This document shows, in pieces, positions 2,256 to 64,000 of a stretch of DNA of 64,000 nt. The first letter of the stretch is position 1. Each line of letters starts with the position of its first letter. Made by a program: the position numbers and the translations under genes. This DNA is from an uncultured Verrucomicrobiota bacterium (GTDB taxonomy: Bacteria > Verrucomicrobiota > Kiritimatiellia > CAIKKV01 > CAITUY01), in NCBI GenBank assembly GCA_964611575.1, contig CAZTAJ010000002.1:22582-86581 (forward strand), in the 5' to 3' direction. The notes under the pieces were generated by a model. That model had not been told where the DNA came from. It was given only the letters and a program-made list of their open reading frames with translations, and did not search any database.

Positions 2256-3536
2256 TCAGACGCCCAGCCCATTGGTCATGTTGAACACCGCCATCACGAT
2301 GCTGACGGCGACGAACCCGACCAGGACGGCCACCAAAACGATCAAGATGGGTTCCAGCGCCGTGGTGAACACCTTGACGTTGCGGCTGAGTTCATTTTCA
2401 TAGCGGCGGGCAATATGTTTGAGCGCGCCGGCCATGTCGCCGGTCTGCTCGCCGATGGCGAGCATGTCGGTCATGAGCGGCGGGAAGACCTTGCCGGCCG
2501 CCAGCGGGCCCGAAATGGTGGTGCCATCGGTCACTCGATCGCGGGCCTTGCGGATCTCGTCGGCGATGATGACGTTGCCGATCGTGTTCTCCACAATGCC
2601 GAGGGCCTGCAGCACGGGCACGCCGTTGGTGAGCAGCGTGCTGAGGGTGCGCGCGAAATTGGCGTAGGTGCTGGAGGCGACGATGCCGCGGAGAAAAGGC
2701 GTCTTGAGCTGGAGGCGATGCCACCGTTCGCGGGCCTTGCCGTGCTGCACGGCCCGGTTGAGCGCGATGCCGCCGCCGACCAGTATGCCGATCATCAGCC
2801 AGCCGTAACGCAGCAGTCCGCCGCTCAAGGCGATCAGCATGCGCGTGGGCAGCGGCAATGCCGCGTTGCCCAGTTCCTCGAAGATTGCCGAGAACTTCGG
2901 GATCACGTAAACCATCGAGAAGATCATGGTGGCGAATCCCATGACCAGCACGATGACGGGGTAGACCAGCGCCGTGACCACCTTCTCCTTCAAATCCTGG
3001 ATGCGTTCGAAATGCTCCACCAGGCGGGTCATGACCTCGGATAGCGCGCCGCTGGCCTCGCCGACGCGGATCATGCTGACGTAAAGCGGCGAAAACGAGG
3101 CGGGCTGCCTGGCCAGCGCGTCGGAAAGGCTGACGCCCTGGATGATCTGGTCGCGCAGTTCGCGGGTGATCTCGTCCGTGGCCGTGCCGGTCTTGCGTCC
3201 GGCGAGGGTGGAGAGTGCATGGCCGAGAGTCATGCCCGATGCCAGCAGGTCGCTCAGTTCGGTCGAGAAGGTCAGGACATCCCGTGTTTTCATGCGGCGG
3301 GGGCCGCGCCCGAACGTGAATTTGAACCCGCCCGACCCGCCTGACCCGCCCGGCCGGGCCGGCCGGGTCGCCTCGCCGACGGCGACGGGCGCCGAGGGAC
3401 CGCCGGCCTGGATGGCGATGGGGACGAGGCCGAGCTTTTCAACCTGGCGCGTCGCGGCGACACGGTCGTTGGCATCGACCGTGCCTTCGACCCGCTGGCC
3501 CGCCTTGTCCCTGGCTTTATAGGTGAAGAGAGGCAC
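2256..3536 (-). CDS. gspF: Type II secretion system inner-membrane platform protein GspF
   Basis: 426 aa with two GspF-type domains and three TM segments. Its position between gspE and gspG fits. Confidence 0.9.
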   Translation of the reverse strand: MPLFTYKARDKAGQRVEGTVDANDRVAATRQVEKLGLVPIAIQAGGPSAPVAVGEATRPARPGGSGGSGGFKFTFGRGPRRMKTRDVLTFSTELSDLLASGMTLGHALSTLAGRKTGTATDEITRELRDQIIQGVSLSDALARQPASFSPLYVSMIRVGEASGALSEVMTRLVEHFERIQDLKEKVVTALVYPVIVLVMGFATMIFSMVYVIPKFSAIFEELGNAALPLPTRMLIALSGGLLRYGWLMIGILVGGGIALNRAVQHGKARERWHRLQLKTPFLRGIVASSTYANFARTLSTLLTNGVPVLQALGIVENTIGNVIIADEIRKARDRVTDGTTISGPLAAGKVFPPLMTDMLAIGEQTGDMAGALKHIARRYENELSRNVKVFTTALEPILIVLVAVLVGFVAVSIVMAVFNMTNGLGV

Positions 3537-3539
3537 TGC

Positions 3540-5246
3540 CTAATCCGCTTCCTCGGTGACGCGCAGGACTTCCTCGACGGTGGTCTGGCCGTCGAGCACC
3601 TTGCCCCAGCCGTCGTCGCGCAGTGTCATCATGCCTTCGGCCACGGCCTTCTGTTTAATCGCGTTGGACGATGACCGCTGGAGAATGAGGGGTTCGATCC
3701 CCTCGGTGATCTGGAGCACCTCGTAGATGCCCATCCGGCCGCGGAAGCCGGTGGACCGGCACTTCTCGCAGCCTGCGCCTTCGTAGACGCCCTCTGATCC
3801 AAGGCGTTCCACCGGGAAACCCGCGCCCTTCAGGAGTGCCTCGTCCGGCGTTGAAGGGCGCCGGCAGGCCTGGCACAGGCGGCGCACCAGGCGCTGGGCC
3901 ACGACGGCTTCGAGCGACGAGGCGACGAGGAACGGCTCCACGCCCATGTCGAGCAGGCGGGTGACCGCGCCGGCGGCGTCGTTGGTGTGCAGCGTGCTGA
4001 AGACCAGGTGACCGGTCAGCGACGCGCGAATCGCAATTTCAGCCGTCTCGAAATCGCGGATTTCCCCGATCATGATGATGTCGGGATCCTGGCGCAGAAT
4101 GTGGCGCAGGGCTGTGGCGAACGTGAGCCCGATGTCGGCCTTCACATTGATCTGGTTGATGCCGGCCATTTCGTATTCGATCGGGTCCTCGACCGTGATG
4201 ATGCGCTGGTCGATGGTGTTGATCTCGTGGAGGTAGGCATACAGCGACGTCGATTTGCCCGACCCTGTCGGGCCGGTGACGAGGATGATGCCGTTCGGGC
4301 GCTCGATCAGCTTGCGCATGATCTTCTCATCGCGTTCCCGCAGCCCGAGTTGGCGGAAGCCGATGAATTCCTTGCCGCGCATCAGCAGCCGAAGGCTGAC
4401 GCTTTCGCCGTAGACGGTCGGCATCGTGGACACGCGGATGTCGATATCCTCGCCCTGGATCCGCATGCCGATGCGGCCGTCCTGCGGCAGGCGCTTCTCG
4501 GCAATGTCCATGTTGGCCATGACCTTGATGCGCGAAAGGATGGCCGCCTGGAAGCGGGTGAGTTGGGCGGGCAGGGGCGTCTGGTGCAGAACCCCGTCCA
4601 CACGGTAGCGGATGCGGAGCTGGTTCTCCATGGGCTCCAGGTGAATATCGGTCGCACGTTCCTGGTAGGCCTCCCAGATGATCTGGTTGACGAACCGGAC
4701 GATCGACGCCTCCTGGTCGAGTTCGCTGAGATCGGTCTTGAGCAGGGTCTCTTCGGGCGCGACTTCGATGCGGCTGCCGTCCTGCATCAGCTTCTCGACC
4801 GTATCCGCGCCGACGCCGTAAAACCGCTTGATGGCCGCGCCGATGTCGGCGTTCAGCGCCAGGGCCAGTTTGACGCGCATGCCCGACGCCAGGCGCAACG
4901 CATCCATCAGGCCGGGGTCAAAGGGGTCGTTGGTGGCCACTTGGAGGGCGCCGTTCTGGATGGCAAGCGGGATGACGTTATACTGGAACACGGCGCGGGT
5001 GGGGAGTTTCTCTAAAATCGCCGCGTCGATGGTCAACGATCCGAGCCTGGCGAACGGCACGTTCAAGACCGCGGCCAGCGCCTCAAGGAAGGCGTCCTCG
5101 GCCACGAACCCCTGGGCGAGCGCGGCGCGGGTGATGGGCATGTCGTTCTGCTGCGCATGCAGTAGGAGCGCGGCAATCTGTGCGTCCGACAGCAGCCCGG
5201 TGCGTTTCAACAGACTCGTCAGGCTGGTTGGCAATGAAGCGGTCAT
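3540..5246 (-). CDS. gspE: Type II secretion ATPase GspE
   Basis: 568 aa. Walker A is GPTGSGKST. It has the Asp and His boxes and a C-terminal tetracysteine motif (CQAC...CEKC). It also has an N-terminal GSPII_E_N-like domain. Confidence 0.9.
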   Translation of the reverse strand: MTASLPTSLTSLLKRTGLLSDAQIAALLLHAQQNDMPITRAALAQGFVAEDAFLEALAAVLNVPFARLGSLTIDAAILEKLPTRAVFQYNVIPLAIQNGALQVATNDPFDPGLMDALRLASGMRVKLALALNADIGAAIKRFYGVGADTVEKLMQDGSRIEVAPEETLLKTDLSELDQEASIVRFVNQIIWEAYQERATDIHLEPMENQLRIRYRVDGVLHQTPLPAQLTRFQAAILSRIKVMANMDIAEKRLPQDGRIGMRIQGEDIDIRVSTMPTVYGESVSLRLLMRGKEFIGFRQLGLRERDEKIMRKLIERPNGIILVTGPTGSGKSTSLYAYLHEINTIDQRIITVEDPIEYEMAGINQINVKADIGLTFATALRHILRQDPDIIMIGEIRDFETAEIAIRASLTGHLVFSTLHTNDAAGAVTRLLDMGVEPFLVASSLEAVVAQRLVRRLCQACRRPSTPDEALLKGAGFPVERLGSEGVYEGAGCEKCRSTGFRGRMGIYEVLQITEGIEPLILQRSSSNAIKQKAVAEGMMTLRDDGWGKVLDGQTTVEEVLRVTEEAD

Positions 5247-35725: not shown

Positions 35726-36622
35726 ATGGACAGTCCATGCGTGATTATGGATAATTCGCTCATGGGCAGATACCGGATTTATCGGGAGACGCGGTTTCGG
35801 ACGCCGAGCCGGACGGAGCGGGAGATCGGGTTATGGGCGGACCGGATTGGCGGCGGAGCGGTGCTGGCCGGCGCCCCGGCACCGCGCGGTCTGCGCTTGC
35901 TCGGGCAGTATGCGGCCGTGGCGGTTGAAACCGGGGCCGGCCGGTTGATCACGGCGCAGGGCGGGGCGTTGCCCGTGACGGCCGGCGATGTGATCCTGGT
36001 CTTCCCCGAGGAACCCACGGCCTACCATCCCGACCCGGCGTGGACCTCGCGCTGGGTGGTGTGGAACGGGCCGGAAGCCGGGCGGCTGGCACGGCTGGGC
36101 TATCTGTCGCGGCAACGTCCCGTGGTCCCGGCGGCTGCGGCGGTTCGGGAGGCGTACGAGCGCCTGTTCCGCCTGATGGAGCGGGAGGATGCGGCGTCGG
36201 TCCTGGAGCGCAAGGAGGTGCTGCTGCGCCTGATTCTTGAACTGCACCGGGCGGCCGAGCGGCGGCATCCGCCGAGTCCGGCGCAACGGCGGATGGCGGA
36301 GGCGGTGGACTATCTCCGGCAGCATGCGGCGGAGGGGGGGCGCGTGCCGGAACTGGCGCGCCGGTTCGGGTTGAGCCCGGCGCATCTCCGGCGTCTCTTT
36401 CGCGAGGGCACCGGGTGGAGTCCCGTGGCGTTTGTGACGGGGCTGCGCATGGCGCGGGCGCGTGAACTGCTCTCGATGGGGATCCCGGTCAAGGAAGCGG
36501 CGGACCGTGTCGGGTACGCGGACCTGTTCTATTTCATGCGCGTGTTCAAGAAGACGCACGGGGTGTCGCCCGGCCGTTTTCTCAAACGATTGACGATGGG
36601 GACAACCGGCGTACGCACCTGA
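35726..36622 (+). CDS. AraC-family transcriptional regulator
   Basis: It has a C-terminal AraC HTH (RVPELARRFGLSPAHLRRLFREGTGWSPVAFVTGLRMARARELL) and an N-terminal cupin-like sensor domain. Confidence 0.85.
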   Translation: MDSPCVIMDNSLMGRYRIYRETRFRTPSRTEREIGLWADRIGGGAVLAGAPAPRGLRLLGQYAAVAVETGAGRLITAQGGALPVTAGDVILVFPEEPTAYHPDPAWTSRWVVWNGPEAGRLARLGYLSRQRPVVPAAAAVREAYERLFRLMEREDAASVLERKEVLLRLILELHRAAERRHPPSPAQRRMAEAVDYLRQHAAEGGRVPELARRFGLSPAHLRRLFREGTGWSPVAFVTGLRMARARELLSMGIPVKEAADRVGYADLFYFMRVFKKTHGVSPGRFLKRLTMGTTGVRT

Positions 36623-36628
36623 GCGCCA

Positions 36629-37501
36629 TCACGGCTGGCGGCCGGCGGCAGTGCTTTCGATCTGTGCCGAGAATTTGCCTTCCGGTTCGGGTGACACCCG
36701 GATGAGCGTCCTCATCCCGCTGGCGGGGCGGCTCGCGCCCGATCCGGGGTATGACGTGAAGCGGTCCACAATGGCGGCGGCGTCCAGGGCGTTGCTGCCG
36801 ATGATAAACAGCCGGCCGGGCTGCGCGGCGCATCCCAGGATCGACAGATCCTCGAGCGAACGCACGCCGCTCACATAAAGGATTTCCGGGGCGAACATCA
36901 AGAGACTCTCCACCCCGTCCTTGATGCTGTCGCAGTCGCTGCCCACCTCGCATTGCACAATGATCGAGCTGCGGTGGGCCATGAGGTAGGTGAGGGGGTT
37001 TTCGACGATCCCCACGATGCGGCGGGAGGTCTGGTTGAGCGCATCGAGGACGGCATAGACGAGGGTGCCGATCAGCACGGGGTCCGGCCCCGACACGCCC
37101 ACGATGCCGCCCTGGTCCGACTGGGTCACCTGCCGCAGGGCGGCAATCGTGGCGGGATCATCGCACAGCGACTCCAGGGCCGGGATGACGAAGGGAATGC
37201 GGGTGACGCTTACCACCTTGCTGCCGCGTTGCGTCAGGTACGTCACGCGGATACGGCCCACCTTGCGCAGGCCGAAGGAAAAGCCGCCGAACATCGAGGT
37301 CGCGTCCAGTTCGCGTTTGGGCGACTGGGTCTTGAGCGCCTGCAGGGTATCGAAGACGTCGCCGGAACTCAGCACCATGCTGAGAATGACGCGCACTTCG
37401 CCTGCCGCATGCACGACGGGTGGGGCATTGGGCGCAAGCACCACGGTGCAGGGTTTGGCATCGCCAGACAGGTACTCCAGGATTTCCTGCGCTCGATTCA
37501 T
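36629..37501 (-). CDS. PilT/GspE-family ATPase paralog with degenerate catalytic motifs (pseudo-ATPase)
   Basis: 290 aa that aligns to the PilT core, but Walker A is replaced by GVSGPDPVLIGT (no GxxGxGKST) and the His box GHLVFGTLHT is replaced by GRLFIIGSNAL. Confidence 0.6.
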   Translation of the reverse strand: MNRAQEILEYLSGDAKPCTVVLAPNAPPVVHAAGEVRVILSMVLSSGDVFDTLQALKTQSPKRELDATSMFGGFSFGLRKVGRIRVTYLTQRGSKVVSVTRIPFVIPALESLCDDPATIAALRQVTQSDQGGIVGVSGPDPVLIGTLVYAVLDALNQTSRRIVGIVENPLTYLMAHRSSIIVQCEVGSDCDSIKDGVESLLMFAPEILYVSGVRSLEDLSILGCAAQPGRLFIIGSNALDAAAIVDRFTSYPGSGASRPASGMRTLIRVSPEPEGKFSAQIESTAAGRQP

Positions 37502-37508
37502 CTAGGTG

Positions 37509-37541
37509 TGGAGCGTGCGACCGGGTTCGAGCCGGCGACCA
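37509..37541 (-). other. tRNA 3'-end-like fragment (variable loop, T-arm, acceptor 3' strand, discriminator, encoded CCA) without a 5' half
   Basis: The minus strand reads tggtc-GCCGG-CTCGAAC-CCGGT-CGCACGC-T-CCA. No complementary 5' acceptor strand (GCGTGCG) or anticodon arm is present upstream. It lies 7 nt upstream of the PilT-like start, at the onset of the lower-GC region. Confidence 0.35.
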
Positions 37542-37859
37542 TCGGCTTTACAAATGGAGCACATTACAGCTAATGACCAATGAATAAAGGTTTTACTATC
37601 TTTGTTCGCCCAGAAGTTTGATGCTTGTTTGACGACCGCGCCGTTTTCGCCGATGATGCTCGCGTGTGATTGAGTGAGCGGTTTCGGCGTTGCTGACATG
37701 GGTCGGCTCCTATTTCTTACTCATACCTAGCACCCGCACGGAACCCACGTCAATAGAAACCGTTCGGCCCGTAAACCGGCCCGTAAACCGCTCATTGGGA
37801 GGGTCTGTCATGCCTCTCGAACCAAGGCACATGAGGCCGTACGCCGGCGCAGCCATCGC

Positions 37860-40800
37860 TCAGAGTGTTATCGGCAGACTGTCTCTGGCGCATTCAGCCT
37901 GCACAGCGCCCGGCAGGCGGAGAACCGTAGCGAAGTTATAGCCGACATCGCTGCTGGCGAGGGCGAGAATGATGTCCGGCGGTTTGGCCAGAGTTCGGAC
38001 GTCGAGTTCGCTGATCCCGGTCTTCTGAGGCCAGAGTTCGGTCTTTCCGTCTTTGAGAGCCTCCAGGGCCGCCACCAGACTCACAAGGATGGAGGCGGAT
38101 GCAATGTGGCCGGTGTTGAACGTCGTGGTGACCAGGGGCACTTCAGCGGATCGCTCGCCGAGGAGTTCGTCGACGATATCCGTGACTTTCAGGTCCACAC
38201 AGTTTCCCATGGGAGCCCAGACAATCAGTCCGATGTCTGCAGTCACGATGCCGGCGCGATCCATTGCCGATTTCACGGCGTGGCGCAGCCCATCACGGCC
38301 GAGGTTCTGGCCGGAAAACTGCTCTGCGTCCATGCTCATGCCGTAGCTCAGAATCTCCGCCAAGACGTTTGCGCCACGCTCTTTTGCGGACCCCAGAGGT
38401 TCAAGCACCAGCATCGCGGCGCCTTCTCCGAGCACTCGCTCTTGGCAGCGGTCGACTCGCAGCCGGTAATCAGCCTCTTCCTCCCCGCGGTAGAGGTAGC
38501 CGAACCGGTCGTAGTTCGCATAGGTCTGACCGTACACTTCGTCCGAAGCCCCCGCGAGAATGGCCTTGGCGCGGCCGTCTGAGATCATCTCACAAGCGTA
38601 GGCCAGACTCTGCAAGCCCGCGTGTGGACCGGGACTGAGCGACATGTTGACGCCCTTGAGGCACAGTCGCGCCGATACGTAACCGGCTGTGGAATTGGCG
38701 GTCACGGACGAAAATCCGGTGATGTCGGCCACGTGGTTGTCGCTGGTGAAAACACTGTCCATGTGCGCCATTTCTGACGCTCCGCAGCAGACGCCCATAA
38801 CAACGCCTACGTCGTCTGCGTTTTTCGGGCTGACCTTCAGGCTGGCATCTCGGAGAGCGAAACTGGATGCGGCAACGGCCAGCCTGCCGATGTCGGTCAA
38901 TCCCGAAAAGTCCAGCCGACGGTCGACTGCTGACGCTGCAAAGGCCTCGACGAGGCCCGCCAGGCGGGACTGCACATTGTCAAGCGCGAGCCTGTCGATG
39001 GGGCGCAGGCCCACCTTGCCGGCGCGCAGGGCCTGCAACGTTGTTTGTGAGGTAAGTCCCAGCGAGGTGACCAGGCCGGTGCCGGTAATGACAACGCGCT
39101 CCTCGCGGCGCGCGAGTGGCCGGATAGGAGCATCGCGGCCGGCGATGACCACCGCAGCGTTGTTGCCGCCAAAGGCGTAGTTCGCGGAAAGGAAGGCATG
39201 GTAGTTCTTGCTCCGCGCCTGGTTGGGAACATGGTCGAGGGGGCAGCCGGGGCGTGGGGAGGAGAAATTGATGGTCGGCGGGATGAATCCCTCGTTCATG
39301 GCGAACACATTGCACGTTGCTTCCAGGATTCCCGTCGCTCCCATGCAGTGCCCGAAGAACGACTTAAGCGAGACGGTCGGCAGGGGGGTATCCCCGAGAA
39401 ACCCTGCGATGCCTTTCGATTCCGCAACATCGTTGGCGGCGGTCCCTGTGCCGTGGGCGTTGATGCAGCCGAGGTCCCCTAACTCGAACCCGGAATCTCG
39501 GAGCGCATTGTGCAGGGTTCTCGACACGCCGCTCCCGCGGGGGTCGGGCGAGGTCGGATGGTAGGCGTCGGACGTCGTGGAGTTCCCTGCGATTCTTGCC
39601 GTCCAACGACCGTGTCGCAGCAGCACATGTTCCATGCTCTCCACAACCCAGAAACCGGCTCCTTCGCCGATGTTCAACCCTATGGGAAGTGAGAAGGGCG
39701 CCGTGCGCTCACTGGACATCGCTTTCAATGCGTCAAACCCGGACATATTGGCCAGGCAAAGAGCATCGGAGCCTCCGACAATCACCGTGCTGCAGCGGCC
39801 ACGGGCAATCAAATTTTGGGCCAGACCGAGCGCCCCGGTGGTTGAGGAGCAGGCTGTGGTGACGATCCATGTTTCGCCGCCCACGCCCAGCGCTCTGGCC
39901 ATGGCCTTCCCGAAACCGTAGAGTTCGGCCTGTGTGTTCAGTTTTTCGTCGGCGACCCTGGCGCTCTTTCCGTGTTTCCAGGCGTATTCCTGTTCGGCTG
40001 AGAGCAGGCCTCCGTTGCAGGTTCCGAGGACAAGGGCCACGTCACGCCGAACGGCGCCACCGGGCCAGTCAAGGCCCGAGTCCTTGATAGCCATTCTGGC
40101 TGCAGCGATCGCATAGAGAAGGTAGCGGTCATCGTACTCGGCGATTTCCGCATCGGTCAGCCATTCAAGCGGCTCGAAATCGTCGATTTGCCCGCCCAGT
40201 GACGAGCGAAAATGCGAGGTGTCAAAGCGGGTGATCGTGCGGATTCCGTGCCGGCCGTCTCTGAGCGCCTTGGTGACCGTGTCCCGGTCGTTTCCGATAG
40301 GACTGAGAATGCCGATTCCCGTGACGACCGCATGGCTATTGACGCCCTGTTTCTGTAAAGGCTTGCCTAGGATCTGGGCATTGTTCTCCCATGTTGCCGG
40401 CTCAAGGCTGGCAACGTGTTGGTCCTTCTTTAGCGCAAAGAAACCATTCCACACCTTCAGGAACTGCTCGTTGAGCTCATCAGGGGTCATGGTCTGAGGC
40501 CGGAAAACTACGTGTGCGCCATTGTAATGACTCCAATCCCGGTCGATGATCCGGTTCTGCCTCTCCATGCGTTCCCATAAAGGAGCCCCCGGGTATGGCG
40601 TGAAAATGAAGAACTCCGACGTGTGGATGTTGGCCTCGACGAAGAGCGAGAGGATGCGGTCGGCGATGCTGGTATCGTCCCAATCTCTACCCATTGCACA
40701 GGATCCGAAGAAACGGATATCCCGGTCCTCCAGTTTCTTGACGAGATCGATGAGAACCTGGCGAGCATTCTTGTCGCCCTGTAAGGCCCTGATGGAGATC

Positions 40801-41657
40801 GGGTCGACATTCATGGTGCAGTAGAAGTTCCGCACGCCGGCTTCTGCAATCAGGTCCAGGAACGAGGCATCGATGTTCAATGCCAGCGTCGAGGAAACAA
40901 AGTACTTCTTGTTGAGAGGCTTCAGTGCCGTGAAGAGTTCTCTGGCGTAGTCCTTGACCTGGCGCTGCGTGAAGAACAAGGAATCATCGGCCAGATAGAC
41001 GTTTTCATACTTGAGGGTCTTGATTTCCCGTACAACGTGCTCGACGGGACGGAAGCGCATGCGGTTGCCCATGTGCGCCGGGATCGCGCACATGGCGCAG
41101 GCGTACGAGCAGCCACGGGAGACCTGCACCAGGTCCTCATCCCAGTCGTAGGAGTCCTTGCTGTAGAAGATCTCACGTTTGGGGATGGGAAGCTTCGCAA
41201 GATCGAACCGGCATCCGCCGATGTACTTGCGTTTGAGCTGCCCCTGCCGGGCGTCCGCTAGAATGGTTTCCCATACGGGCTCGACTTCTCCCACGTTGAC
41301 GGCGTCGGCATGCTTCAAACACTCGTCAGGCATTGTGGACGGAAAGAACCCGCCCATAATGACCTGTTTGCCGTGCCGGCGAAAGCCGTCCGCGATCTCA
41401 AAGGCCCGAGTTGCCTGCGGAGTGAAACAGTTGATGGCCACCAGGTCGGTGTCGGCGGCGTAGTCAATGGCGTCGCCCCCGTTGTCGTCAATCAGTTCGA
41501 CATCGATCGACTCCGGCGTCAGGGCTGCCATGATCGGAATGCCAAGAGACGGCGGCGTCGTGAAATTGCCGAGAAAATAGCTGACCAGATCGCTATCCAG
41601 ATCCTTGCGAGATTCCAGAAACTTGGTGAATCGAGGATAGACGAAAGAAACCTTCAT
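37860..41657 (-). CDS. Tri-domain fusion: B12-binding radical SAM domain + beta-ketoacyl synthase (KS) + KS-like/chain-length-factor domain
   Basis: 1265 aa. The N-terminal 430 aa form a B12-binding domain plus a radical SAM domain (CSYACAMC = CxxxCxxC). The middle is a full KS (TTACSST active-site Cys, NAHGTGT, GHCMGATG). The C-terminal domain is a KS-fold without the canonical Cys-His-His triad, so it is CLF-like. Confidence 0.8.
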   Translation of the reverse strand: MKVSFVYPRFTKFLESRKDLDSDLVSYFLGNFTTPPSLGIPIMAALTPESIDVELIDDNGGDAIDYAADTDLVAINCFTPQATRAFEIADGFRRHGKQVIMGGFFPSTMPDECLKHADAVNVGEVEPVWETILADARQGQLKRKYIGGCRFDLAKLPIPKREIFYSKDSYDWDEDLVQVSRGCSYACAMCAIPAHMGNRMRFRPVEHVVREIKTLKYENVYLADDSLFFTQRQVKDYARELFTALKPLNKKYFVSSTLALNIDASFLDLIAEAGVRNFYCTMNVDPISIRALQGDKNARQVLIDLVKKLEDRDIRFFGSCAMGRDWDDTSIADRILSLFVEANIHTSEFFIFTPYPGAPLWERMERQNRIIDRDWSHYNGAHVVFRPQTMTPDELNEQFLKVWNGFFALKKDQHVASLEPATWENNAQILGKPLQKQGVNSHAVVTGIGILSPIGNDRDTVTKALRDGRHGIRTITRFDTSHFRSSLGGQIDDFEPLEWLTDAEIAEYDDRYLLYAIAAARMAIKDSGLDWPGGAVRRDVALVLGTCNGGLLSAEQEYAWKHGKSARVADEKLNTQAELYGFGKAMARALGVGGETWIVTTACSSTTGALGLAQNLIARGRCSTVIVGGSDALCLANMSGFDALKAMSSERTAPFSLPIGLNIGEGAGFWVVESMEHVLLRHGRWTARIAGNSTTSDAYHPTSPDPRGSGVSRTLHNALRDSGFELGDLGCINAHGTGTAANDVAESKGIAGFLGDTPLPTVSLKSFFGHCMGATGILEATCNVFAMNEGFIPPTINFSSPRPGCPLDHVPNQARSKNYHAFLSANYAFGGNNAAVVIAGRDAPIRPLARREERVVITGTGLVTSLGLTSQTTLQALRAGKVGLRPIDRLALDNVQSRLAGLVEAFAASAVDRRLDFSGLTDIGRLAVAASSFALRDASLKVSPKNADDVGVVMGVCCGASEMAHMDSVFTSDNHVADITGFSSVTANSTAGYVSARLCLKGVNMSLSPGPHAGLQSLAYACEMISDGRAKAILAGASDEVYGQTYANYDRFGYLYRGEEEADYRLRVDRCQERVLGEGAAMLVLEPLGSAKERGANVLAEILSYGMSMDAEQFSGQNLGRDGLRHAVKSAMDRAGIVTADIGLIVWAPMGNCVDLKVTDIVDELLGERSAEVPLVTTTFNTGHIASASILVSLVAALEALKDGKTELWPQKTGISELDVRTLAKPPDIILALASSDVGYNFATVLRLPGAVQAECARDSLPITL

Positions 41658-49495: not shown

Positions 49496-50947
49496 ATGAT
49501 GAATCTCGCTGACTTGCTGCAACATGCTGCCGCGCGATATCCCGAAAACATTGCGGTTTCGGATGGTGAGCGTGCGCTGACCTATGCAGAACTGTGGCAG
49601 GAGGTTTGCCGTGCCGCCGGGGAACTGGAGGCCGTGGGGATCGGTCGCGGCCGGATGGCGGGCCTTCAGTTGGGGAACAGCATTGCATTCATCATACTGA
49701 CCTATGCGTTGTGGCGCTGTGGGGCGGTGGTTGTCCCTATTCCCATGGAGATGCGGGAGTCGGAGAGAACCGAATTGCTCCGCACGATGGACTTGGCCGC
49801 CGTGTTGTCGAGTACGGCACCGGTGGGTGAGCACGCGACCGTGGCAATCGATGTCGCGGGCACAGCCATAACGGGCACCGTATTCCATAGGGGCAGCGCG
49901 CCGATCAGGGACAAGGTCAATGCCGCCATGGTGCGGTTCACATCAGGAACAACCAACGCCAACAAGGGGGTTGTGCTTTCTCACGAGGGCATACTGGAAC
50001 GCATCACGGCCGCGAACAATGCGTTGCATATTGGCCCGGGCGACACCGTAATGTGGTGCCTCCCCATGGCTCACCACTTCGTGGTTACGATCATCCAGTA
50101 CCTTTGGCAGGGGGCGAAAATCGTTCTCATCAGGAACACGGCAGGCCAACCCTTCCTTGATGCGATCATCGAGAACCGGGGCACAGTCTTGTACGCATCG
50201 CCGTTTCACTACGATGCGCTTTCACAAGACGCGTCGGGACGTGGGATCTCGTCTGTGCGCATGGCCATCTCAACGACCACGGCCCTTCCGGCCGATACGG
50301 CGCTCCGTTTCTTCGATCGGTACGGCCTGCACCTCATCCAAGCCTACGGAATCATTGAACTCGGGCTGGCTTGCGTCAATGTCGATGATCCGGCCGGCCG
50401 GCCGACATCGGTCGGGCAGCCGACCCCGGGATTCAGGTTGCGGCTTGCCAACGGAGAGCAGTACATCGGGCTTGGCGAGGGATGTGGCGAAATCGAGGTC
50501 TCCGGCCCCGGGTTCTTCGCGGCCTATTATCATCCGTGGGTTGCCGCCCGCGACGTCATGGATGGCCCGTGGTTTCACACTGGTGACGTGGGCAGAATCG
50601 ACAGCGACGGGTTCCTCTTCCTCTACAGTCGGGTCAACAGCGTCATCAATATCGCGGGAATGAAGGTTTTTCCGGAAGAAATTGAGCACGTACTGGACTC
50701 GCACGACTTCGTGAAGGAGTCGCGGGCCTACGCGGTGAAGCATGCCCACCTGGGGGAGGTCGTCCAGGCCGATGTTGTGCTGCGCCACGGCGTTGCAGCG
50801 GTGTCTGAGGATGACCTCCGAACGCATTGCGCGCAGCGACTCTCTTCTTTCAAGGTGCCGAACAGGATTCGATTCCTGGACGGCATTGACAGGACATCGA
50901 CCACCCTCAAGATCAAACGACACACAGCACCGGAGTCGGCCACTTGA
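49496..50947 (+). CDS. AMP-dependent synthetase/ligase (fatty-acyl or aryl-AMP ligase; ApeH-like starter-loading enzyme)
   Basis: It has an adenylation core A3-like motif FTSGTTNANKGVVLSH and an A8-like GWFHTGDVGRIDSDGFLFL. Start trimmed to MMNLADLL. Confidence 0.8.
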   Translation: MMNLADLLQHAAARYPENIAVSDGERALTYAELWQEVCRAAGELEAVGIGRGRMAGLQLGNSIAFIILTYALWRCGAVVVPIPMEMRESERTELLRTMDLAAVLSSTAPVGEHATVAIDVAGTAITGTVFHRGSAPIRDKVNAAMVRFTSGTTNANKGVVLSHEGILERITAANNALHIGPGDTVMWCLPMAHHFVVTIIQYLWQGAKIVLIRNTAGQPFLDAIIENRGTVLYASPFHYDALSQDASGRGISSVRMAISTTTALPADTALRFFDRYGLHLIQAYGIIELGLACVNVDDPAGRPTSVGQPTPGFRLRLANGEQYIGLGEGCGEIEVSGPGFFAAYYHPWVAARDVMDGPWFHTGDVGRIDSDGFLFLYSRVNSVINIAGMKVFPEEIEHVLDSHDFVKESRAYAVKHAHLGEVVQADVVLRHGVAAVSEDDLRTHCAQRLSSFKVPNRIRFLDGIDRTSTTLKIKRHTAPESAT

Positions 50948-63246: not shown

Positions 63247-64000
63247 GCATCCGTTTTTGGGCATCCACGAATTCTGCCGCTGCCATCGGTGGGGGTTGCT
63301 CATGGTCTCCGCAGTGATGACGTTGGCCGCCGGCGTCTCGCTGTGGTTCGTGCAGTACGATAAGACTCTGGATTCCATGCTTCCGGCACGCAGCTCGATC
63401 CCCCGAGTGATGGAGGTGCTTCGGGATGCACGCCTCTCGAATAAGATTGTGGTCAGCGTAGGCTCCGTCGTGGCGGGTGCCACGGCGCATGATGTCATGA
63501 TCGCGGCCGATCAACTGGCGACTTCGCTTGCGCAATCGCCGCTGATCAACCAAGCCACGGCGGATTTCACGCGCATGGCGTCCGTCGACGATATGGCCCT
63601 GTTCTATCAGGCGGCGCCCGAACTCCTGGGGGAAGAGGATGTCCGTGAGATGGGCGTTGCCGTGACGCCGGAAGGGGTGCGCGCCGCTCTCAGGCGGCGA
63701 TACGTGCAACTCATGAAGCCCGAGGGCAACTTCCTCGCTCCCTTGATCCGTGCCGACCCCCTCGATGTCCGCTGGCGGGTCGTGGAACGGCTGCAGGCCG
63801 CGATGTCCTCCTTTGGGTACGATGTCAACATGGTCGAGGGCCACCTCATGAGCCGGGACGGACGGCATTGCATGATTGTGGCCGAGACTCCGATTGCGCC
63901 GACCGACAATGTCGGAGCTATGGCCTTGGTGAAGATGTTGACCGCGAAGATCGGGTCGTTGCCGACAGGTTTCACGGCGGACACGATATGCGGTCACATG
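63239..64000 (+). CDS. MMPL/RND-family exporter, 5'-partial view (continues past window)
   Basis: Manual translation from the GTG at 63239 (alternative ATG at 63302) gives ...MVSAVMTLAAGVSLWFVQYDKTLDSMLP...., an N-terminal TM segment plus a periplasmic domain typical of MMPL/HpnN-like lipid exporters. There is no stop in the window. Its start overlaps the LolA-like stop. Confidence 0.55.
   Translation, partial: MSKHPFLGIHEFCRCHRWGLLMVSAVMTLAAGVSLWFVQYDKTLDSMLPARSSIPRVMEVLRDARLSNKIVVSVGSVVAGATAHDVMIAADQLATSLAQSPLINQATADFTRMASVDDMALFYQAAPELLGEEDVREMGVAVTPEGVRAALRRRYVQLMKPEGNFLAPLIRADPLDVRWRVVERLQAAMSSFGYDVNMVEGHLMSRDGRHCMIVAETPIAPTDNVGAMALVKMLTAKIGSLPTGFTADTICGHM

Follow-up and report, generated by a model that had tools for sequence, protein, structure and literature searches.

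The window analysed here is a 64,000-nt stretch of contig CAZTAJ010000002.1 from an uncultured Verrucomicrobiota bacterium. Its minus strand carries, at 37509..37548, the displaced 3′ portion of a tRNA-Gly(TCC) gene (tRNA positions 37-76 with the encoded CCA), located where a core flank meets a region of lipid-type biosynthetic genes. The core flank begins with a PilT-like gene (36629..37501, minus strand, identified from the open reading frame (ORF) list and Pfam), the first syntenic core gene, whose start codon is 6 nt past the tRNA remnant. The opposite side of the remnant is occupied by the degenerate counterpart of tRNA positions 26-36, which correspond to the 5′ strand of the anticodon stem and the anticodon loop (37549..37559, minus strand), followed by a putative attachment (att) arm of element origin, spanning from the tRNA-derived core to the integrase start (37560..37809, minus strand), and by the apparent remnant of a tyrosine-integrase gene (37810..37821, plus strand). 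Approximately 80 nt of junction DNA (37822..37904) lie between the integrase remnant and the end of the homology to related clusters, and hold the final 14 codons and the stop codon of the first biosynthetic gene. This gene (37860..41657, minus strand) encodes a 1265-aa protein in which a B12-binding radical SAM domain is fused to two ketosynthase domains (rSAM-KS; Pfam), and its G+C content at third codon positions (GC3) is 0.73. The biosynthetic region was followed past the window by exact-protein look-ups on Logan contig SRR12261224_44328 (loci L006, L093, L102 and L106). This contig ends at ~88.7 kb in three samples, 24.7 kb past position 64000, and the far boundary of the region lies beyond. 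The segment 37509-37821 very probably represents the decayed integrase-proximal junction of an integrative element (attR type, composed of element arm, core and host tRNA 3′ end).

The tRNA fragment reads along minus-strand positions 37541..37509 as a variable loop (TGGTC), a 5-bp T-stem (GCCGG and CCGGT) enclosing a 7-nt T-loop (CTCGAAC), a 7-nt acceptor strand (CGCACGC), a discriminator T and CCA. The T-stem has four Watson-Crick pairs and one G-T pair, and the T-loop starts with C at T54, a position that is almost universally T in tRNAs. Local alignment of the fragment with the intact tRNA-Gly(TCC) of relatives (contigs L008, L009 and L013) gave a score of 65 over 40 nt with 37 identities, compared with a maximum of 26 for 500 shuffles. 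The three substitutions in the 40 nt are A41C, T54C and C69A. The 36 nt upstream are identical to the 5′ part of the tRNA at only 12 positions, and the 5′ half is missing. These comparisons bear out the preliminary description of this DNA, in which 37509-37541 had been read as a tRNA 3′ end lacking its 5′ half. With a similarity far above chance, the fragment is a genuine leftover of a tRNA-Gly gene. A degraded full-length tRNA, with the D-arm and the anticodon arm placed upstream (TAGCTGTAATGTGCT and TTGTAAA), was ruled out by the same 12/36 identity and by the missing 5′ acceptor strand.

Generic tRNA detection did not reach significance. ARAGORN made no tRNA call over the window, and an Rfam scan of 36500-39000 (E ≤ 10) returned no tRNA. 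Searching Rfam with the bare fragment in truncated mode gave tRNA as the sole family match, cut at the 5′ end, with a non-significant 10.3 bits (E = 7.3) against a gathering score of 29. The generic tRNA shape by itself thus hints at a tRNA origin and does not prove it. Since the generic detectors stay below their thresholds, the significance of the match is drawn from the comparison with the lineage's own tRNA. The fragment fails as a functional tRNA gene: the cloverleaf is incomplete, T54 is replaced by C, and the Rfam score is below the gathering score. No second copy of the fragment was found in the window or in L006 (≤ 3 mismatches), or in any fetched locus of the same contig (≤ 5 substitutions). 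An antisense ORF of 206 codons (36953-37573, plus strand) ends with the residues ERATGFEPAT, which are the translated reverse complement of the T-arm; it is an ORF-finder artefact and not a gene.

The fragment sits within a 65-codon ORF (37502..37699, minus strand) that was called by the gene finder. The ORF is preceded by AGGAG 7 nt upstream, and its TAG stop codon directly adjoins the start codon (ATG) of the PilT-like gene. When the 65-aa product was searched exhaustively with HMMER, one real homologue emerged among 1.84 billion representatives, the 41-aa protein P0027, which is 67% identical across residues 1-37. P0027 is encoded on contig_7707 of ENA ERZ25039499 (hereafter L100), and also on Logan contig L101, 100 bp from the gene of a divergent 578-aa tyrosine integrase (PF00589, E = 3.7e-14). 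Directly after P0027 follows a perfect 51-nt copy of tRNA-Gly(TCC) positions 26-76; the L100 contig contains neither a tRNA 5′ half nor an intact tRNA. Past approximately codon 37 the 65-codon ORF shifts frame relative to L100, and its last 28 codons run through the tRNA remnant. The differences to P0027 at codon positions 1, 2 and 3 number 7, 5 and 11, a mild enrichment at the third position. No Pfam match was obtained for the product, and the fragment is thus free of overlap with a conserved protein domain. From these features, the ORF would at best be a damaged copy of a small element gene.

Nucleotide comparisons showed that the similarity to L100 reaches well beyond the ORF. In a blastn search, window 37715..37509 aligned to L100 with 74.5% identity over 212 nt (E = 4e-30), and a MAFFT alignment carried the homology of the arm on to a conserved block at the integrase start codon, making window 37826..37509 homologous to L100. 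The block contains ATGCCTCTCGAA in the window and ATGCCTCTGGAA in the L100 integrase gene, and the putative integrase remnant comprises the ATG and three further codons (MPLE). Its start codon is 262 nt from the tRNA fragment on the opposite strand, and the integrase homology ends past 37821. A tblastn search with the full L100 integrase gave nothing in the window or in L093, and PF00589 matched none of the called genes across 33.5-88.7 kb. The integrase gene thus appears to have been removed almost exactly, with its first four codons left in place. The preliminary description had taken the 320 bp next to the fragment as an AT-rich spacer, which holds for ~37500-37650 (42-48% GC) and fails for 37650-37860 (54-61% GC). 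To judge from the alignments, the spacer represents an integrase-adjacent att arm and not anonymous AT-rich DNA, in agreement with the integration scar that had been suspected.

A relative of the L100 integrase (47% identical) is encoded at 2959-4440 of the IMG/VR provirus UViG_3300050333_000099. The 3′ fragment of a tRNA-fMet gene lies at ~2777-2830, ~130 bp from the integrase start and on the strand opposite to the integrase, and an intact tRNA-Met(CAT) gene, sharing its strand with the fragment, lies ~48 kb away (50867-50943). The two tRNA copies share an identity block that begins in the anticodon stem and ends 4 nt past CCA. The arrangement shows that in this integrase family the integrase adjoins the displaced fragment, and the rebuilt tRNA is located at the opposite end. 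The identity block starts at position 26 in L100; that of the window matches cleanly from position 37, with a degenerate stretch over positions 26-36, in which GCTC is kept and the following 8 nt mismatch L100 at 7 positions. The window, L100 and the provirus have in common a divergent integrase, a short arm and a tRNA 3′ copy in equal order and orientation. Between the window and L100 the likeness extends to the small ORF, the tRNA-Gly(TCC) target and the DNA of the arm (~75% identity). However, L100 has its integrase complete and its 51-nt tRNA copy perfect, whereas the window has a stub and a damaged copy, and the provirus differs in its use of tRNA-fMet and in having both ends intact. The lipid biosynthetic cluster is found in neither, within the parts read. 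Scans of viral contigs with a 21-mer of the arm and a 35-mer of the tRNA-Gly gave no matches.

The preliminary description had proposed a comparison with relatives lacking the island, and such relatives are represented by JGI contigs L008 and L009 and Logan contig L010, whose PilT-like orthologue is 78% identical to that of the window. The gene order in these contigs is a DNA-alkylation-repair gene, an intact tRNA-Gly(TCC) gene, an ABM-domain gene on the opposite strand, 271 bp of intergenic DNA, the PilT-like gene and the URO-D gene. In L008, ~600 bp separate the intact tRNA-Gly gene from the PilT-like gene downstream of it; both genes and the window fragment are oriented alike. On the core side, synteny between the window and L008 extends over URO-D (86%), peptidase MA (78%), MTHFR (93%), rubredoxin (81%) and MetH (89%). 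The L008 genes located upstream of the tRNA had no counterpart in the window or in the searched 49.9-71.5 kb of the contig. Synteny with L008 breaks exactly at the fragment. The tRNA-Gly(TCC) gene is base-for-base identical in L008 and in L013 (NCBI contig CAITUY010000217.1), the sole useful result of a genome-collection scan with the DNA-alkylation protein, which is widespread and otherwise gave mostly unrelated phyla. The PilT-like protein of L013 is only 58% identical to that of L008. Within 208-5349 of L013, the DNA-alkylation gene is directly upstream of the PilT-like gene with a tRNA-free gap of 97 bp, and the tRNA-Gly(TCC) gene is 3.4 kb downstream. The position of the tRNA relative to the PilT-like gene has moved within the clade.

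The break in synteny coincides with a step in composition, and the island boundary placed here earlier was confirmed by both. The GC content directly to the left of the fragment is 60-72%. The five core genes to the left have GC3 values of 0.82-0.88, compared with 0.65-0.79 for the cluster, its last gene included, and 0.56 for the ORF in the scar. The region starting with the rSAM-KS gene covers at least 51 kb (37860 to ~88.7 kb), all of it of lipid- or polyketide-type biosynthesis. At least seven of its genes encode B12-binding radical SAM proteins, the 1265-aa fusion among them, and it further has genes of ketosynthases, acyl carrier proteins, ketoreductases, an MCAT-type acyltransferase, other acyltransferases, ApeI/ApeP-like dehydratases, thioesterases, a LolA-like protein, an 800-aa membrane protein, an amine oxidase and a GcvT-like protein. 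One of the proteins bears the source name "lipid biosynthesis B12-binding/radical SAM protein". In composition, the region is foreign relative to the core flank, and its start falls where the interior of an element should begin. The rSAM-KS fusion has 92 confirmed relatives in JGI metagenome contigs, the best 80 of the 92 at 46-93% identity. The closest cluster relatives are on contigs L109 (93%) and L110 (87%). Their homology to the window stops at ~37905, and past the rSAM-KS gene they carry unrelated DNA with no arm, no integrase of the family and no PilT-like gene.

These features are accounted for by the integration of an element at the tRNA-Gly(TCC) gene followed by decay of the junction. 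By the mechanism of this class, the tyrosine integrase of the element would recombine its attP site, which would carry a tRNA copy from the anticodon stem to CCA, with the host gene. Integration would restore a complete tRNA gene at the element's far end and displace the original tRNA 3′ part to the near end, adjoining the integrase. Later, the integrase gene would have been deleted to its first four codons; with the integrase lost, the junction would no longer be excisable. The orphan tRNA piece would then have gained substitutions, including the one at the normally invariant T54, and the former interior of the element would now be filled by the lower-GC lipid-biosynthesis genes. Scars of this kind, consisting of a tRNA fragment with a lost integrase, are already well known as a phenomenon. 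The preliminary description had judged the topology correctly, with the island on the high-coordinate side and the intact tRNA expected far off. However, it had assigned the fragment to the end distal to the integrase, which is contradicted both by the integrase stub near the fragment and by the layout of the family.

The origin of the cluster DNA is a separate matter. Most likely it entered via the tRNA-Gly hotspot, either as cargo of the element or by later accretion or replacement, a reading of much lower confidence than the junction itself. That the biosynthetic region was cargo of this very element is somewhat less likely than not, and it is possible but rather doubtful that a tRNA-Gly-targeting element delivered the whole region (at least 51 kb) as its cargo and that integrase loss then fixed it. 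If true, a whole membrane-lipid or polyene pathway would have moved between lineages via site-specific integration. The decayed junction pins one edge of a large accessory lipid-biosynthesis region to ~100 bp, identifies tRNA-Gly(TCC) as a probable hotspot, names the integrase family likely to be involved, and gives a checkable prediction of the location of the other end. The layout of the family, with the integrase beside the displaced fragment, matters for delimiting such islands in draft genomes.

Several observations weigh against integration and decay as the account of this locus. The integrase remnant has only 12 nt. The comparator L100 is distant: its host is a different one (54% GC), and it shares only ~75% identity with the window. 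The divergence is uneven: positions 29-36 differ from L100 at 7 of 8 nt, and positions 37-76 differ from the tRNA at 3 of 40. Such unevenness is unexplained by uniform decay and implies a different attP variant or a later event. The flank also does not match simply, as L008 and another relative, L099, have the ABM gene and ~250-270 bp between the tRNA and the PilT-like gene, whereas the window has 6 nt from CCA to ATG. This difference calls for either a further deletion in the window or an insertion in the lineage of the relatives. The PilT-like proteins of L008 and L099 are 89% identical to each other and each 78-79% identical to that of the window; the window is thus the outgroup, with the ABM gene perhaps gained in the lineage of the other two or lost here. 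Finally, 37.9-~88.7 kb contains no intact tRNA-Gly gene, direct repeat, integrase or other mobility gene, the far end lying beyond. The intact tRNA or direct repeat that had been predicted past position 64000 was thus not found in the 24.7 kb to ~88.7 kb.

The absence of mobility genes from at least 51 kb of cluster also bears on an explanation in which the scar and the biosynthetic region result from unrelated events. A small or unrelated element, such as a prophage like the IMG/VR relative, would have integrated at the tRNA-Gly gene, and a later deletion, inversion or tandem accretion would have stripped it of its body and integrase and abutted the cluster to the arm. We consider this to have close to an even chance. 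It agrees with the unrelated DNA past the rSAM-KS gene in L109 and L110, with the ~80 nt separating the integrase remnant from the end of cluster homology, and with the known members of the integrase family, which are a prophage and a defence- or transposase-rich contig and not biosynthetic islands. However, the cluster is foreign in composition and begins exactly at the expected interior of the element, and a simple deletion from the cluster to the integrase would also remove the rebuilt tRNA-Gly gene, barring another copy.

Two further explanations dispense with the integration. The 65-codon ORF could be a plain small gene translationally coupled to the PilT-like gene, its resemblance to a tRNA being incidental. 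The AGGAG spacing, the abutting stop and start codons, the gene-finder call, and the N-terminal 37 residues shared with P0027 with their mild third-position enrichment are compatible with a gene. Its C-terminal 28 codons, however, are out of frame relative to L100 and consist of translated tRNA remnant, its GC3 of 0.56 is below that of the core genes, and it has no Pfam match and a single homologue in the representatives searched. With a 37/40 tRNA match far above chance in addition, a plain gene is improbable. The T-arm-like palindrome was also considered as a native hairpin, serving as leader or terminator for the PilT-like gene or for the biosynthetic operon upstream, as the fragment is separated by 6 nt from the PilT-like start and follows the rSAM-KS gene, all on one strand. 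A conserved leader or terminator of the PilT-like gene had been named in the preliminary description as a result that would overturn a scar. However, the PilT-like leaders of L008, L099, L013, L011 and L012 have no tRNA-like element (shuffle p 0.02-0.94, with no value significant once corrected for five tests). In the leaders of L013 and L099, a 10-mer weakly resembles the tRNA (p ~0.02-0.03 uncorrected); it was rejected as non-significant after the five tests. The hairpin is not followed by a T-run, the terminator scan made no call, and the similarity reaches past the hairpin over the whole tRNA 3′ portion. A native hairpin is thus effectively refuted.

The junction was compared with known integrative islands. 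The displaced 3′ tRNA fragment is described as a signature of tDNA-flanked islands in Islander, in which anticodon-centred sites form the majority class (2083 of 3919 islands; Hudson, Lau & Williams 2015, PMC4383910). The window resembles this anticodon-centred "A" class in having a 3′-terminal tRNA fragment, comprising positions 37-76 including CCA, in the orientation of a displaced fragment, with the core flank on its 3′ side and foreign DNA on its 5′ side. The identity blocks of the family running from the anticodon stem-loop to CCA, the arm associated with a tyrosine integrase and the step in composition are further likenesses. Unlike the Islander islands, the window retains 12 nt of integrase and would fail the integrase filter, it shows no intact cognate tRNA or repeat within 51 kb, and its fragment is damaged (3 substitutions, with positions 29-36 scrambled). 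ICEclc and the PAGI-type islands, which are large, insert at the very 3′ end of another tRNA-Gly and include conjugation modules. Set beside these islands by description only, the window is alike in the tRNA-Gly target and in a putative cargo of tens of kilobases, and unlike in that no conjugation module was seen here.

The putative arm contains a 12-bp unit, GGTTTACGGGCC, tandemly duplicated (two copies) at 37766-37789 (minus strand); L100 has a single diverged copy. A near-copy, AATTTACGGGCC (10 of 12 positions), is found at L189 2766-2777 (minus strand), after the CCA of the provirus tRNA-fMet fragment, and may be due to chance. Assignment of GGTTTACGGGCC as an arm-type site of the integrase was rejected, as the copies are too few and inconsistently placed, those in L100 being weak and that of the provirus lying in the expected host flank. 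A sigma-70 promoter upstream of the small ORF (TTGACG-N18-TAGGTA) was seen by eye and is unsupported by the promoter scan, which made no call. Contigs L002 and L003 (runs SRR21424288 and SRR21424289) both end at one base, window ~37671, within the scar ORF, which suggests a branch in the assembly graph from strain variation just on the island side of the fragment. On a JGI metagenome contig (L119), a homologue of the rSAM-KS fusion gene has a distant tyrosine-integrase-like sequence ~8 kb away, at 944-1645, with 26% identity to the integrase of L100 across 249 aa.

The PilT-like family is small, with 22 matches among 5.8 billion proteins. The nucleotide-binding loop of PilT is GPTGSGKST. In the PilT-like protein of the window, the loop is degenerate (VSGPDPVLIG), and the Pfam T2SSE score of 20.4 bits is below the threshold of 24.9; the protein is probably a pseudo-ATPase. 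Its gene is now devoid of an upstream region of its own and would be transcribed from or through the scar. The otherwise conserved synteny of the core flank is interrupted by small indels. The amidohydrolase gene of L008 is missing from the window, and an AraC-family regulator gene lies between the PilT-like and URO-D genes in the window (35726-36622, plus strand) and in L099 (1142-2032), and is absent from L008.

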